Source of the DNA: an uncultured Catenibacterium sp.
GTDB taxonomy: Bacteria; Bacillota_I; Bacilli_A; Erysipelotrichales; Coprobacillaceae
DNA: 64,000 nt
Assembly: GCF_900540665.1 (NCBI RefSeq)
Contig: NZ_UQGV01000001.1
Span: 4,967 to 68,966 of the forward strand
Direction: 5' to 3'
In this document: positions 4,189 through 59,253 of the stretch, piece after piece
Position numbering within the stretch: the stretch's first letter is position 1
Layout of the letters: the number at the start of each line of letters is the position of its first letter
Program-made: the position numbers and the translations under genes
Notes under the pieces: generated by a model
Seen by the model: the letters and a program-made list of their open reading frames with translations, nothing else
The model's database searches: none
What the model was told of the DNA's origin: nothing

Positions 4189-4334
4189 GGCAGTCGTTTA
4201 TATGTCATGTCAACAAGGGCATGCAAAAACTTAAAGAACTAGGTATAGCGTTCTATACAAAAGAGAAATTAAAGAAAATGGACTATTCTTTATCAAGATA
4301 GTCCAATCATAAATTAAATAAATAGTAAATTGGT

Positions 4335-4402
4335 AAGCCGTATGCATTAATAGTGCACGTACGGTTTGATAAGGGGCTAGCCTAGTGATAGGTTAGCCTA
4401 CT
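4335..4402 (+). mobile_element. group II intron 3' fragment (domain V plus domain VI with a bulged A)
   Basis: Positions 4335-4367 read AAGCCGTATGCATTAATAGTGCACGTACGGTTT, which matches the domain V consensus (RAGCCGUAUG....CACGUACGGUUY). It has the AGC triad, the G-U pair, an AC bulge and a 9-bp lower stem. Positions 4374-4402 form the hairpin GGGGCTAGCCTA-gtga-TAGGTT(A)GCCTAC with a single bulged A, as expected for domain VI. There is no room upstream for domains I-IV and no IEP ORF. Confidence 0.7.
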
Positions 4403-4577
4403 TTCTTAGGTGCTCAAGTTCATCGGAACACTTGGTCACCCTAATCGGAATGAGTGATTAATTAAAGTGGAATAATAAACACCCTATCCTATATTTAACA
4501 GAATTATAAAAGAACGGAAAACAAATTATTAGTAAAATTCTTCTAAAAATATTACTTTGAATTATTCTTAATAAATA

Positions 4578-28937: not shown

Positions 28938-29717
28938 ATGAAACCAATGATGTGTTTTGATGTAGATGGTACTATTAGAGGTACGACAGATGAACATATA
29001 GTATATGATTCAACGATTCTTGCGCTTAAGAAATTAAAGGAAGCAGGATATCCAATCGTTGTTTCAACAGGAAGAGGAAGAGATTCTTTCTTACGTACGG
29101 GTATACAGGATATTGCGGACTGGGATGGATTTGTGTTTAATAACGGTCAGTTGATTACAGATGGGAAAGGCAATGTGATCAATGCCCATCATTTTAAGAA
29201 TGAAGATGTTATTCATACAATTGCGAAAGCAGATGAATTGAATCTTGCAGTGACTTTGAAGAAGGAACATCGCATTATCACAAAAGAACCAGATGAATAT
29301 GTCTTAGAGACACAGCGTTATTTTGGAAACCAGATAGGACCGGTTGAAAAGTATAACGGGACTGATCTTGTCGATATGATGATTATCTATGGTCCTAAAG
29401 GGTGGGATTATAAACCATTTCTTGATTTAGAAGGTATTTCTGTATTACCAGGTTTATCCTGTTTTGCGGATGTTGCTATTGCAGGTGTATCTAAAGCAAC
29501 AGGTATTATGGAATTAGGTAAAGTATTAGGTAGTGATCATTATATATGTTTTGGTGATTCACAGAATGATATAGAAATGATGAAGCATGCCTCAACATCA
29601 ATTTGTATGGGTAATGGTGATGCAATGACTAAAGCGGAAGCAGATTACGTAACTGCAGATATTGATGATGATGGTATTTATAAAGCTTGTATTCATTTTG
29701 GATATATAAAGGAGTAG
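28938..29717 (+). CDS. HAD family hydrolase (Cof-like)
   Basis: N-terminus reads CFDVDGTI and a GDSQNDIEM motif is present. Confidence 0.75.
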   Translation: MKPMMCFDVDGTIRGTTDEHIVYDSTILALKKLKEAGYPIVVSTGRGRDSFLRTGIQDIADWDGFVFNNGQLITDGKGNVINAHHFKNEDVIHTIAKADELNLAVTLKKEHRIITKEPDEYVLETQRYFGNQIGPVEKYNGTDLVDMMIIYGPKGWDYKPFLDLEGISVLPGLSCFADVAIAGVSKATGIMELGKVLGSDHYICFGDSQNDIEMMKHASTSICMGNGDAMTKAEADYVTADIDDDGIYKACIHFGYIKE

Positions 29718-53869: not shown

Positions 53870-54577
53870 ATGTTATTAGAAGTTAAGGATCTTGAAGTAC
53901 ACTACGGTGTCATTAATGCGATTAAGAAGATTTCATTTAATGTTGAAGAAGGTGAAATCGTTGCACTTATCGGTGCCAATGGTGCGGGTAAAACAAGTAC
54001 AATGCATGCTATTTCTGGCTTATTAAATGGCAAGAGTGGTGAAATCATCTTTAATGGTGAAAACATCATGAAGACTCCTGCACATAAAATTGTTTCTAAA
54101 GGTCTTGCACAGGTTCCTGAAGGACGTCGTATCTTTGCTCAGTTGAGTGTTGAAGATAACCTAGAAATGGGTGCTTATCTTCGTAATGATGCAGATGGTA
54201 TCAAGAATGATATTGAACATATTTATACATTATTCCCACGTTTAAGAGAAAGAAAGAAACAGTTAGCCGGTACATTATCTGGTGGTGAGCAGCAGATGCT
54301 TGCTATGGGCCGTGCTTTGATGTCTAAACCAAAACTATTATTACTAGATGAACCATCAATGGGTCTTTCTCCGATCCTTGTTAATGAAATCTTTGATATC
54401 ATTAAAGAAGTAAATGAAAAAGAAGGTATGACTATTCTACTTGTAGAACAGAATGCCAATAAAGCACTCTCTATCGCAAATCATGCTTATGTACTTGAAA
54501 CAGGTAACATTACTGTATCAGGTAAAGCTGAAGATGTCGCAAATAATCCACGTGTTAGAGAAGCATATCTTGGATAA
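53870..54577 (+). CDS. livF: branched-chain amino acid ABC transporter ATP-binding protein LivF
   Basis: Walker A (GANGAGKTS), LSGGEQQ signature and Walker B (LLLDEPS). Confidence 0.9.
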   Translation: MLLEVKDLEVHYGVINAIKKISFNVEEGEIVALIGANGAGKTSTMHAISGLLNGKSGEIIFNGENIMKTPAHKIVSKGLAQVPEGRRIFAQLSVEDNLEMGAYLRNDADGIKNDIEHIYTLFPRLRERKKQLAGTLSGGEQQMLAMGRALMSKPKLLLLDEPSMGLSPILVNEIFDIIKEVNEKEGMTILLVEQNANKALSIANHAYVLETGNITVSGKAEDVANNPRVREAYLG

Positions 54578-54582
54578 TAAGT

Positions 54583-54608
54583 TCTCCCTTGGGGAGGACT
54601 TTTTTTGT
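54583..54608 (+). terminator. intrinsic terminator (copy 1 of a duplicated hairpin)
   Basis: Stem gttctccc, loop ttg, stem gggaggac, then T6. A near-identical hairpin occurs at 56087-56110. Confidence 0.75.
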
Positions 54609-54619
54609 TTTATTTTATG

Positions 54620-54698
54620 TAATTTACCTTACAGGTTAATTTTAAATATTGCATTTTGGTGCTTTATAGGTTATAATGTATTTACCTCAAAGGTAAAT
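54620..54698 (+). promoter_or_regulatory. higBA promoter with two inverted-repeat operators
   Basis: -35 TTGCAT (54648-54653), 18 nt spacer, -10 TATAAT (54672-54677). Inverted repeats aatttacc...ggttaatt (54620-54643) and atttacc-tcaaa-ggtaaat (54680-54698) flank or overlap the promoter. Confidence 0.55.
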
Positions 54699-54717
54699 CA
54701 AAGAGAGGAGTGTTTGC

Positions 54718-54984
54718 TTGAAGATCACATATAAAAATAAAAGGATTGAGAAGGTTTGCACAATTGCAGACGAAGCAGAGAGAAGATATGGGCCAAGAAT
54801 GGCAGAGAAGATTCATCAACGCATAGATGAAATTGATGCATCTGATACGGTTGAAGAGATGGTACAATCCCGTATTGGAAGATGTCATCCTTTAAAAGGT
54901 GATCGAAAGGGTCAATATGCAATGGAATTAGCACAACCCTATCGTTTGATTTTTACAAAAGAGGTAATGAAATTCAAATTGTAA
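54718..54984 (+). CDS. higB: type II toxin HigB (RelE/ParE superfamily)
   Basis: 88 aa whose C-terminal HPLKGDRKGQYAMELAQPYRLIF matches the HigB signature (HPLKG.RKG.WS.R....RI.F). TTG start after RBS agaggag. The toxin gene comes first, as in higBA. Confidence 0.75.
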   Translation: MKITYKNKRIEKVCTIADEAERRYGPRMAEKIHQRIDEIDASDTVEEMVQSRIGRCHPLKGDRKGQYAMELAQPYRLIFTKEVMKFKL

Positions 54985-55026
54985 ATGTAATCGAAATAGT
55001 AGATTATCATTAATTAGGAGGAAAAA

Positions 55027-56082
55027 ATGATGGTGAAGAGTCGCACATTTATTGCAACACCGCCAGGCACAACTATTAAAGAACAACTGCTAGACAAAGG
55101 TATGAGTCAAAAAGAATTTGCGACACGAATGGATTTATCACAAAAACATGTGAGTAAACTAATCAATGGTGAAGTTCAGCTGACTCCGGATGTTGCGGTA
55201 CGTTTAGAAATGGTATTAGGTATTCCAGCTAAGTTTTGGAATAAATTAGAAGCTACTTATCGCGAAAAGTTAATTAAGGCAAATGCGGAAAATGAAATGG
55301 ATGCGGATATAGAAATTGCCAGAAAGATGCCATATAATGAAATGGTTAAATATGGATGGGTACCAGTTGCCAAAAAGATTGAAGAAAAAGTGGTAAATTT
55401 AAAAAAGTTTTTTGGAGTAGTAAGTTTAGTATTGCTTAAAGATATGCGTTTATCTAAGATTGCTTGTCGTAGACTTGCTGATACAGAAAAAAGTAACTAT
55501 GCTTTGATGGCTTGGGCACAACAGGCAAGAATATTAGCACGTGATATTAAAGTATCATCAATAGATTTAAAAACACTAGAGCACAAATTATCTGAAATAA
55601 GGAGTATGACTACTCTAGATCCAGATGTTTTTTGTATAGAGCTAGAAAATCTGCTTGCAGGATGTGGTATTGCTCTTATTTTTCTTCCTCATATTGGAGG
55701 TTCGTTCTTACATGGTGCAACTTTTGTTGATGGAAATAAAATAGTTATAGGTCTCACTGTTAGAGGTAAGGATGCAGATAGATTTTGGTTTAGCTTGTTT
55801 CATGAATTGGGTCATATTTTACTTGGTCATATTAATAATATTGATGGTACCACTGAAGAGGATGAAAACTCAGCAGACCAGTTTGCGCAGGAGATATTAA
55901 TTCCTACGGCTGATTTGGGTGAGTTTGTATCTCAAAATGATTTTTCTCGATCATCTATCTGTGATTTTGCGGAAAAAGAAAATATTCAAAGTGGTATTGT
56001 AGTAGGTCGTCTACAAAAAGAACATTTCATAAATTATAATCAGTATAATGATTTGAAAACTAAATATGAGATAACATCTTGA
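55027..56082 (+). CDS. higA: HigA-type XRE antitoxin fused to an ImmA/IrrE-family zinc metallopeptidase domain
   Basis: The N-terminal ~95 aa is a HigA-like HTH (GTTIKEQLLDKGMSQKEFATRMDLSQKHVSKLINGEVQLTPDVAVRLEMVLGIPAKFW). The C-terminal ~250 aa carries HELGH (HEXXH) in an ImmA/IrrE (COG2856/DUF955)-like context. RBS aggagg. Confidence 0.75.
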   Translation: MMVKSRTFIATPPGTTIKEQLLDKGMSQKEFATRMDLSQKHVSKLINGEVQLTPDVAVRLEMVLGIPAKFWNKLEATYREKLIKANAENEMDADIEIARKMPYNEMVKYGWVPVAKKIEEKVVNLKKFFGVVSLVLLKDMRLSKIACRRLADTEKSNYALMAWAQQARILARDIKVSSIDLKTLEHKLSEIRSMTTLDPDVFCIELENLLAGCGIALIFLPHIGGSFLHGATFVDGNKIVIGLTVRGKDADRFWFSLFHELGHILLGHINNIDGTTEEDENSADQFAQEILIPTADLGEFVSQNDFSRSSICDFAEKENIQSGIVVGRLQKEHFINYNQYNDLKTKYEITS

Positions 56083-56086
56083 GTTC

Positions 56087-56110
56087 TCCTTTTTGGGAGG
56101 ACTTTTTTTA
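56087..56110 (+). terminator. intrinsic terminator (copy 2 of a duplicated hairpin)
   Basis: Stem gttctcc, loop tttttg, stem ggaggac, then T7. Confidence 0.75.
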
Positions 56111-56273
56111 TATATACATCACTATTTTTAAAATATTAAAAAATTCTTAATTAAAAAAATAGCGATATATGCAATATAAAATACAAATACTTAAGAAAAT
56201 CTTAAGAAAATAGTAGACAGATATAAGCCATGGTGTTATAATCGCATTTGTTGACAAGCAAAGGAGAATAACT

Positions 56274-57774: not shown

Positions 57775-59253
57775 GTGTTTATCATGTATATAGGAACACA
57801 GGATTTACTTAAGCAGTATGATGCTTATTTATTAGAACATGGTTATCAAATAGAGGAACTTGTTAATCTTGCAAGTGATGCTTTATTAAACCATTTCACA
57901 AAATATAATCAACTGGCTATTCTAATAGGACCAGGTAATAATGGGGCGGATGGCTATTCTTTAGGATTAAAACTAGAGAAACTAGGAAAACAAGTCAGCT
58001 ATTATTACAGTGGGGATATAGGAAAGGTATCACAGGCTAATCGTTATTATCGTGATCATTGTGTTGATAATCATCTTATTTATGTAGATGAAGATAATAT
58101 TAATACAATTAACTGGAATGACTATGATTGTATAGTAGATGGATTATTTGGGTTTGGATTAAATAGCGCCCCTAGAGGCATGTACAAGATCATGATAGAG
58201 TCTATTAACGATACTTATATTGGTATTGTCGGGGCTATTGATATCCCTACAGGACTTGACTGTAATACAGGAAAAGCGTATGAAACAGCATTAAAGGCAG
58301 ATTTCACAGTTACTTTAACTGCTTTAAAACAAGGTTTCTTAGATCCCCGTTCATTAGAATATACAGGTGAAGTGATTTTAGAAACATTGGCTGTAAAGGA
58401 CTGTTTCAAGGAAGCAGGCTTATTTGAATATGTAGGGCAGGAATATGCTAAAGCACATTTAAGAAAGAGAGTCTATAATGGTTATAAGAATATCTATGGA
58501 GTAGATGGTTTAATTGTAGGAAGTGACCAATATACAGGTGCACCATTACTTGCGACTAAAGCAGCTTATTATACAGGTGCAGGTATTGTGAAGACAATTA
58601 CTTCAGAAAAAGTGACTTCACTATTACCTCTTTATATTCCTGAAGCTATTCCAGTTACGAGACCACAGATTTTCCATTATGATGATTTTGATGGTTATGA
58701 TGCATTATTAGTCGGATGTGGTTTAGGGCTTGAAGAGGGTGCTTTTAGAGCCGTTATTGATATTATGACAGCTTCTATCTGCCCACTTGTCCTTGATGCA
58801 GATGCACTTACAATTCTATCTAGAAATATGCATTTATTAGAAAAACAGGATCGTAGTGTTATTCTTACGCCTCATATTGGTGAATTCAAACGTTTATGTC
58901 ATGTAGAAGATTATCCTGATTTAATGATTGCAGCACAGAGTTTTGCTTCAAAGTATCATTGTATTCTTGTCTTAAAAGGTCCTCATACTATAGTGACTGA
59001 TGGTAAGACATCTTATCGTATTGCGTCTGGTAATAAAGCCATGGCAGTAGGTGGCATGGGTGATACACTCGCTGGAATCATTACATCACTTCTAGGACAG
59101 GGTTATGAAGCGTTAGAAGCGGCAGTACTTGGTGTTTATATTCATGGATGTGCTGGAGATGAAGTTGCAAAACAGGCCTATACAGTTATTCCTGAAAAAC
59201 TTATCGAAGAAATACCACATACAATGGCTGTACTTGCTGGTGAAATAGAATAA
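57775..59253 (+). CDS. nnr: bifunctional NAD(P)H-hydrate repair enzyme Nnr (epimerase + ADP-dependent dehydratase)
   Basis: N-terminal YjeF_N domain (GPGNNGADG) plus a C-terminal carbohydrate-kinase-like YjeF_C domain (GCGLG...GMGDTLAG). The start may be at 57784. Confidence 0.85.
   Translation: MFIMYIGTQDLLKQYDAYLLEHGYQIEELVNLASDALLNHFTKYNQLAILIGPGNNGADGYSLGLKLEKLGKQVSYYYSGDIGKVSQANRYYRDHCVDNHLIYVDEDNINTINWNDYDCIVDGLFGFGLNSAPRGMYKIMIESINDTYIGIVGAIDIPTGLDCNTGKAYETALKADFTVTLTALKQGFLDPRSLEYTGEVILETLAVKDCFKEAGLFEYVGQEYAKAHLRKRVYNGYKNIYGVDGLIVGSDQYTGAPLLATKAAYYTGAGIVKTITSEKVTSLLPLYIPEAIPVTRPQIFHYDDFDGYDALLVGCGLGLEEGAFRAVIDIMTASICPLVLDADALTILSRNMHLLEKQDRSVILTPHIGEFKRLCHVEDYPDLMIAAQSFASKYHCILVLKGPHTIVTDGKTSYRIASGNKAMAVGGMGDTLAGIITSLLGQGYEALEAAVLGVYIHGCAGDEVAKQAYTVIPEKLIEEIPHTMAVLAGEIE

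Follow-up and report, generated by a model that had tools for sequence, protein, structure and literature searches.

Between the end of a branched-chain amino-acid transporter gene set and a cell-wall hydrolase gene, an uncultured Catenibacterium sp. of the C. mitsuokai group carries two genes that resemble a HigBA toxin–antitoxin (TA) pair, the second of which joins a HigA-type repressor to an ImmA/IrrE (M78) zinc peptidase. Does this pair work as a peptidase-controlled TA system, which of its proteins is the harmful one, and how did the cassette come to lie at this site? We address these questions in a 64,000-nucleotide stretch of contig NZ_UQGV01000001.1, hereafter the window. An earlier description based on the letters alone (the sequence-only reading) had proposed a HigB toxin and a HigA-peptidase fusion inserted between duplicated terminator hairpins; the features lie where it placed them, but it overlooked that the toxin gene in the window is a frameshifted pseudogene. 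We put at roughly 0.8 the probability that the cassette is a type II TA operon of the RelE/HigB plus Xre-COG2856 fusion class, horizontally acquired at the livF terminator and disarmed by the shortening of a run of five A's to four. What remains in the window is probably an autorepressed orphan antitoxin or regulator gene, intact in sequence.

The higB frameshift and the HigA-M78 fusion protein

The open reading frame (ORF) that opens the cassette encodes 88 residues on the forward strand from a TTG start, and its product matches the Pfam family HigB-like_toxin (PF05015) with 28.4 bits, just above the cut-off of 27. The family was thus named correctly beforehand; the toxin itself is not intact. 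The A-run at 54957–54960 has four A's where intact alleles have five, as read from the sequence and from an alignment with those alleles, and the ORF stops early because of the resulting −1 frameshift. After the run, frame 0 reads EVMKFKL up to a stop at 54982–54984, while the conserved HigB C-terminus, GNEIQIVNVIEIVDYH followed by its stop codon, lies out of frame at 54963–55013. The frame shifts after residue 81 and the final 17 residues are lost, among them the D-Y-H that aligns with catalytic Asp90-Tyr91-His92 of Proteus vulgaris HigB, where these three residues and His54 are critical (PMC5027501). The equivalent of His54, H57 (in RCHPLKGDRKGQ), is retained. With one A restored, the gene encodes a 98-residue HigB that fits PF05015 end to end (32.4 bits, cut-off 27) and matches PHROG 3066, 'toxin of TA system' (E=8.6e-17), and P. 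vulgaris HigB (E=4e-5). The gene therefore belongs to the HigB/RelE RNase family, and an intact toxin ORF with the catalytic C-terminus, missing in the window, is found in the C. mitsuokai allele WP_006505114.1. Because higB is a frameshifted pseudogene, the cassette is not a working TA pair in the window, and with its RNase gene disabled the locus is here unable to act as an addiction or abortive-infection module.

The downstream gene encodes a 351-residue protein identical to RefSeq WP_295088489.1, 'HigA family addiction module antitoxin'. Its N-terminal part is a HigA-type Xre helix-turn-helix (HTH) domain, as had been proposed: Pfam HTH_3 lies at residues 17–68, residues 6–83 match P. vulgaris HigA (4mcx_A) at E=1.2e-8 in a phmmer search against the PDB, NCBIfam TIGR02607 (antidote_HigA) is matched at 50.4 bits against a cut-off of 47.7, and HigA structures are the best Foldseek matches to this part of the predicted fold, with root-mean-square deviations of 1.6–1.8 Å. 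The peptidase assignment also holds, but the 250 C-terminal residues that the sequence-only reading had given to it are too many, as full-length profiles and the fold search confine the ImmA/IrrE-like region to about residues 205–340, behind a helical linker (about 85–200). Within it, Pfam Peptidase_M78 (PF06114) matches residues 230–300 at 36 bits (cut-off 22, E=7e-9), a span of about 70 residues. The HELGH motif at 55801–55815 corresponds to residues 259–263 (H259-E260-L-G-H263), and E280 lies within an E-x3-D-x-FA motif; HELGH and E280 are invariant in 32 homologues. The PADLOC profile for CapP (E=6e-10) and PHROG 87, a metallo-protease, match as well. In the AlphaFold2 model of the protein (predicted local distance difference test score 81.8), the C-terminal part has CapP 7t5t (E=3.9e-4) and the PprI/IrrE structures 8sln and 3dti as its best PDB matches, each with a Foldseek probability of 1.00. 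An HExxH motif with a downstream Glu ligand, a score above the curated profile threshold and an IrrE/CapP-like fold are thus all present, as expected of an M78 peptidase.

The two genes lie on the same strand, 13 nt apart, toxin gene first, and share one promoter. This promoter had been described as consensus, which is true of its −10 element and 17-nt spacer but not of its −35 element, which agrees with the consensus at three of six positions only; for this reason an automated consensus scan made no call for it. The −10 element and the TTG of the −35 element are conserved across the five loci compared, and palindromes accompany the promoter in all five. In the window the promoter is flanked by two operator-like palindromes, O1 and O2 (Table 1), which are the TTTACC/GGTAAA inverted repeats of the sequence-only reading and the only two matches to ATTTACC-N5-GGTWAAT in the 64 kb, against 0.7 expected. 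O1 is kept in the sister lineage, in a higB-deleted lineage and in phage NatCom_34192, and the O2 of Dorea has the same sequence and those of the phage and of sister lineages nearly the same, so that conservation of the operators extends over the sister lineages and the phage and partly to Dorea.

By analogy with characterised homologues, the HigA-type HTH of the 351-residue protein would, in an intact module, bind both operators around the promoter and repress its own operon, and the same protein would bind and neutralise HigB, a ribosome-dependent mRNA endonuclease. The M78 peptidase could serve as a signal-activated switch, as in ImmA/ImmR, IrrE/DdrO and CapP/CapH, with single-stranded DNA, DNA damage or infection as signals. 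On triggering, its cleavage of the HTH/antitoxin part, whether in cis or in trans, would derepress the operon and free the toxin, and the freed HigB could then bring about abortive infection or addiction.

Table 1 Features of the cassette and its borders in the window, in order of position.
Feature	Position	Strand	Remarks
livF	53870–54577		end of the livHMGF branched-chain amino-acid ABC transporter genes, upstream of the cassette
Left direct-repeat copy, livF intrinsic terminator hairpin	54578–54606	+	TAAGTTCTCC-CTTG-GGGAGGAC-T7; hairpin 54579–54601
Operator-like palindrome O1	54622–54640		ATTTACC TTACA GGTTAAT; 8 nt upstream of −35
Promoter	54649–54677	+	−35 TTGCAT 54649–54654, 17-nt spacer, −10 TATAAT 54672–54677; read from sequence
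Operator-like perfect palindrome O2	54680–54698		ATTTACC TCAAA GGTAAAT; 2 nt past −10, overlaps the expected transcription start
higB pseudogene	54718–55013	+	TTG start behind strong GAGAGGAG ribosome-binding site; ORF as read 54718–54984
higA-M78 gene	55027–56082	+	351 residues; HigA-type antitoxin/repressor fused to ImmA/IrrE zinc peptidase
HigA-type Xre HTH domain	55042–55275	+	residues 6–83
ImmA/IrrE (Peptidase_M78, COG2856) domain	55639–56049	+	about residues 205–341
Right direct-repeat copy, cassette terminator	56080–56109	+	TGAGTTCTCC-TTTTTG-GGAGGAC-T7; hairpin 56081–56104
NlpC/P60 (cell-wall) hydrolase gene, P60	start 56274		downstream of the cassette

Proposed insertion at the livF terminator and relatives in other genomes

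The cassette is bracketed by two near-identical hairpins, so that the order in the window is livF, hairpin, promoter with its two palindromes, higB, higA-M78, second hairpin with T-run, and P60. Both were picked up by a terminator scan and fold stably as RNA (left, −15.1 kcal/mol, z −3.05; right, −13.6 kcal/mol, z −4.2), and their motif, AGTTCTCC-N(3-8)-GGAGGAC, occurs at these two sites only in the 64 kb, against 0 expected. The direct repeat is about 27 nt long and comprises a stop codon, the hairpin and the T-run: the left copy starts at the second TAA after livF, and the first three bases of the right copy are the stop codon of the antitoxin gene. In sister lineages, too, both copies begin with TAA. 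From these limits, the inserted segment begins about 15 nt ahead of O1 and ends precisely where the antitoxin ORF does. The predicted empty site exists in a third Catenibacterium species (GCA_046978825.1, GCA_046981965.1 and metagenome contigs), where livF is followed directly by P60, with 307 nt of intergenic DNA and one hairpin copy (TAAGTTCTCCTTAGGGAGGACTTTTTT; in contigs L111–L118 the single copy reads AGTTCTCCTTAGGGAGGACTTTTTT), and at every occupied site examined the hairpin is found on both sides. These comparisons support the proposed insertion with duplication of the livF terminator; the acquisition would have been by an ancestor of some Catenibacterium lineages, with the roughly 27 nt duplicated on either side.

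A further suggestion, that the cassette moves as a unit, holds for the segment from promoter to stop codon, which recurs in Dorea and in gut phages, but not for the hairpins, which do not travel with it. We had considered hairpin duplication as a property of the module and rejected it, since the Dorea copy has two unrelated terminators; the hairpins belong to the Catenibacterium livF terminator and are not part of the mobile module. No recombinase, transposase or other mobility gene accompanies the cassette, a search for a compositional signature of foreign DNA found none (GC content 0.34–0.35 in the cassette and 0.34–0.37 outside), and an Rfam scan found no RNA element in the cassette.

Relatives of the module are widespread. 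The architecture of the 351-residue protein is shared by 1105 representative clusters at E<=1e-30, nearly all with proteins of 340–375 residues that align end to end. Dorea has a 72%-identical copy with an intact 98-residue HigB, between V-ATPase and ABC-transporter genes, and the human-gut phage NatCom_34192 (PV036448.1) has a 64%-identical copy with both operators and an intact TTG-start higB (98 residues). For this phage higB (L120:2674–2970, about 29251–29547 of the record) GenBank gives two small hypothetical coding sequences instead. The module has a moron-like position in the phage genome, with the gene for the terminase large subunit on one side and the portal gene on the other. Among IMG/VR viral loci with a relative of the antitoxin, 39 of 43 have a full-length, intact 98-residue HigB ORF 13–55 nt upstream. 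Full-length relatives of the 351-residue protein occur on 52 plasmids from many phyla, one of which, pRadio3 of Deinococcus radiophilus (NZ_CP086384.1), encodes a RelE/ParE toxin, a 373-residue HigA-M78 protein and then an overlapping Fic-family gene. The pRadio3 module adjoins genes for a DUF262 protein and a restriction S subunit; it is a three-gene variant in a setting like a defence island. As the promoter-higB-higA(M78) unit is found in such unrelated contexts (Dorea, gut phages), we regard it as a horizontally mobile module.

Some further observations concern the terminator site itself. In two sister-lineage contigs (L024:1–350 and L025:1–340) something other than livF lies to the left of the cassette, and homology breaks inside the left hairpin (at …ataccattgCCTTAGGGAGGGCTTTTTTT); both contigs end about 340 nt beyond the break, and a minus-strand ORF there starts MKQSKHNIYYSPKKVRTILNRSIDTALDGLKCY. 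Probably a multicopy mobile element has entered the same terminator hairpin here, in which case the hairpin would be an insertion hotspot. The livF–P60 gap is variable (L119:3872–6449, L021:6080–6635, and 56110–56273 of the window). In the higB-less haplotype L119 an Acyl_transf_3 gene (367 residues) lies between the second hairpin and P60, of which a remnant of about 385 nt is present in the sister lineage (L021) and none in the lineage of the window.

Comparison with known systems

The class to which this cassette belongs was described computationally by Makarova, Wolf and Koonin in 2009, who found operons on phages, prophages and plasmids in which an Xre-COG2856 fusion accompanies a RelE or PIN toxin, and proposed that they are three-component TA systems under protease control, with a proteolytic switch of the LexA or ImmA kind (PMC2701414). 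The window has exactly this architecture, a RelE-superfamily toxin gene followed by a fused Xre HTH/COG2856 protease. Where that analysis covered the whole class, the present instance adds an insertion site, conserved operators and a series of toxin-null alleles. The experimental counterpart is the anti-phage system PD-lambda-2 of E. coli (Vassallo et al. 2022), which consists of a HigB-like A, a HigA-peptidase B and a P4-antitoxin-like C; overexpression of B alone from an inducible promoter is toxic, A rescues, and C is required for defence (PMC9519451). The likeness to the window is clear, with a HigB-like first gene followed by a HigA-type Xre HTH protein with a C-terminal ImmA/IrrE peptidase, and the PADLOC profile for B (PDLC03982) matches residues 13–348 of the 351-residue protein over profile positions 60–391 of 402 (E=5.6e-38). 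The link to proposed three-component or anti-phage modules that the sequence-only reading had drawn is supported. The window has no component C, however: the terminator follows directly after the antitoxin stop codon, and the next gene, P60, is present at the empty site too. Since its HigB goes unrecognised by PADLOC and the third gene is absent, the cassette is the two-gene core and not PD-lambda-2 as defined. The HigB proteins of Dorea and the Deinococcus plasmid, like the repaired HigB, have no PADLOC match at E up to 10 and are HigB-like by Pfam or PHROG only. Polarity differs as well, reported as reversed in PD-lambda-2 while the natural toxin-null alleles described below suggest the canonical one. 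We found no experimental study of HigB together with ImmA or M78 in the literature other than that of PD-lambda-2.

Canonical HigBA, as on P. vulgaris plasmid Rts1 (PDB 4mct, 4mcx), shares with the window the toxin-first order, the palindromic operators, a related toxin (E=4e-5, with the HPLKGDR loop and terminal DYH in common) and a related antitoxin HTH (E=1e-8). It differs in that canonical HigA has about 100 residues, as opposed to 351 here with a helical linker and M78 peptidase, and in that the window toxin is frameshifted. In RosmerTA (RmrT/RmrA), from the ImmA/Rosmer antitoxin hub D25 of NetFlax (Ernits et al. 2023, PMC10440598), the antitoxin likewise has an N-terminal HTH and an ImmA-type protease domain, and RmrA profiles match our protein at E=5e-11 or weaker. 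These matches cover sub-regions only, and the partner is a HigB/RelE RNase that RmrT profiles do not match, so the cassette is not a RosmerTA member. ImmR/ImmA, DdrO/IrrE(PprI) and CapH/CapP share the M78 fold, with an Xre-type repressor as the likely substrate; their triggers are DNA damage or single-stranded DNA (10.1101/2022.04.27.489752; PMC6868357). Those switches are made of two proteins, whereas here repressor and protease form one polypeptide and the cargo is the upstream toxin gene of the operon. Much of this is already known: the prediction of the architecture dates from 2009, defence of E. coli by a homologous system was demonstrated in 2022, and RefSeq has names for both proteins (RelE/ParE toxin; HigA antitoxin). 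The window holds a locally inactivated member of the class, of little consequence for discovery in itself and a tidy illustration of how such a module arrives and decays.

Natural alleles and alternative readings

An intact 98-residue HigB, WP_006505114.1 (C. mitsuokai), is found on 822 contigs by exact look-up, and its cassette occupies the same livF–P60 site and is 98.7% identical to that of the window. Most conspecific contigs thus carry an intact higB at this site, and at least six different inactivating lesions segregate. Those recorded besides the A4 allele are a change of the start codon from TTG to TTT (verified in the DNA of contigs L001, L004, L005 and L010), a nonsense change at R63 (CGA to TGA, in L005 and L010), an internal deletion of about 25 nt giving a 77-residue product (38 contigs), a stop at Q73 giving a 72-residue product (9 contigs), and a frameshift near codon 61 (6 contigs). 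The 71-residue call that corresponds to the start loss is found on 288 contigs, a count possibly inflated by the gene caller's choice of start, since the same caller chose a downstream ATG for the intact sister-lineage gene in L024 and L025. Among the listed members the disrupted fraction is about 31%, or about 9% without the start-loss allele. Missense changes beside catalytic H57 in full-length alleles (R55K, C56Y, P58S and P58L in the listed cluster members P0316, P0321, P0322 and P0323) may be attenuating, in addition to the truncating lesions. In a second, sister lineage, higB is intact in most contigs and carries a nonsense mutation in one, and in the L119 haplotype, whose flanks are nearly identical to those of L021/L022, higB is cleanly deleted such that the operator-bearing promoter directly drives the antitoxin gene. 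The antitoxin gene has its full length at all loci examined, as it does in all 15 members listed for its 90%-identity cluster. The two genes are conserved together, and it is the toxin that decays first. That higB is repeatedly lost while the HTH-peptidase gene is kept speaks for HigB as the harmful partner in this family and for a protective role of the fusion protein. Twenty conspecific contigs had at first suggested that higB is dead throughout the species, which we rejected given the intact allele on 822 contigs; the sample was misleading because its loci had been picked by exact identity to the LivF or antitoxin of the window.

The locus thereby offers a natural example of toxin-first decay of a peptidase-gated TA system, with occupied, toxin-null, toxin-deleted and empty states within one genus. 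As evidence that is independent and does not come from experiment, the allele series bears on which of the partners does harm, a point left puzzling by the sole experimental study of the architecture, and the two-operator promoter and the phage-borne copies are concrete reagents for testing M78 gating of a HigBA pair.

Several points weigh against a horizontally acquired, now disarmed TA operon. Operator binding, neutralisation and peptidase-triggered release are carried over from homologues. PD-lambda-2, the sole tested system of this A-B architecture, has the opposite polarity, B being toxic and A rescuing (PMC9519451), and neither the PD-lambda-2 component A profile nor any other PADLOC profile matches the window HigB at E up to 10. 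As regards the direction of change at the site, the flanking genes of the three lineages are equidistant, an unresolved trichotomy at a synonymous divergence (dS) of about 0.32, and are compatible both with an insertion that duplicated the repeat and with a later deletion between the two repeats. Finally, relaxed constraint on the antitoxin once the toxin is gone is suggested, and not proven, by 8 nonsynonymous and 2 synonymous polymorphic codons within the toxin-null sub-lineage of the window, compared with 11 nonsynonymous and 15 synonymous ones in flanking genes (two-sided Fisher test, p=0.065), a signal that comes from 10 polymorphic codons in loci chosen by exact LivF or antitoxin identity.

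The alternative that survives best is that the orphan HTH-peptidase is kept for a job of its own, either immunity or anti-addiction against phage higB modules or stress-responsive repression of other genes, and we consider it quite unlikely. In its favour, the gene remains full length in every lineage that loses higB, including the clean deletion in which it takes over the operator-bearing promoter; its ratio of nonsynonymous to synonymous divergence (dN/dS) is 0.12–0.15 between lineages; and the operator sequence recurs in the homologous modules that gut phages carry, against which such a protein could act. On the other hand, the corresponding polymorphism ratio (pN/pS) is about 1 within the toxin-null sub-lineage, the operator motif occurs nowhere else in the window, a congeneric species does without the gene altogether, and neutral decay, too, would leave an antitoxin that outlasts its toxin. 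It is likewise unlikely that, after repeated independent loss of HigB, the autoregulated HigA-M78 protein has been kept as useful alone, as immunity or anti-addiction against the homologous higB-higA(M78) modules of gut phages, whose operator sequence is the same, or as a stand-alone repressor-protease that senses damage or infection. Were this true, the natural allele series would settle the identity of the toxin for the family, opposite to the outcome of PD-lambda-2 overexpression.

Very unlikely, in our view, is a polarity reversed as in PD-lambda-2, with the HTH-peptidase as the toxic effector and the HigB-like protein as its neutraliser. The result of Vassallo et al. and the nearly end-to-end fit of the 351-residue protein to the PD-lambda-2 B profile speak for it. 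The many contigs with a frameshifted, start-less, truncated or deleted HigB speak against it, as they retain a full-length HTH-peptidase with HELGH and E280 intact, and a toxic protein should not allow its neutraliser to be lost time and again. Moreover, the toxicity of B in E. coli was seen on inducible overexpression, whereas here B stands behind its own operators.

We consider it most improbable that the cassette of the window still functions, either by ribosomal or transcriptional slippage at the A-run or through an active 88-residue product. The shift does lie in a homopolymer, nothing is damaged in the promoter, the ribosome-binding site or the TTG start, and HigB keeps its first 81 residues with the His54 equivalent among them, but four A's are too short for efficient slippage. 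The species-majority allele is simply in frame, which marks the frameshift as a mutation and not a programmed signal, and other alleles in the population are unambiguous nulls; an active truncated product would have to do without the last strands and the D-Y-H that are critical in HigB (PMC5027501). A sequencing or assembly error that hides an intact higB is a negligible prospect even though homopolymer lengths are a classic source of error, since the identical A4 allele recurs in more than 15 independent metagenome assemblies from different studies and its 88-residue product is found on 30 contigs and in RefSeq (WP_295088486.1, 'RelE/ParE family toxin').

Apart from these readings, a comparison of L021/L022 with L119 gives a dS of 0.06 for flanking genes and 0.63 for the antitoxin genes, as large as between species, which suggests that recombination has replaced one cassette allele by another or that a balanced polymorphism of long standing exists here. 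Elsewhere in the window, an Rfam match to the group II catalytic intron RF00029 (41.7 bits, gathering score 40) lies at 4333–4406 on the forward strand, and in one conspecific contig (L001) the P60 and nnr genes are followed, at a distance of about 2 kb, by a gene for a group II intron reverse transcriptase. Read from a GTG at 57775, an uncertain start codon, nnr (window 57775–59253; YjeF_N and carbohydrate kinase) encodes 492 residues; gene calls in related contigs have 489 residues and, in one case, 520.

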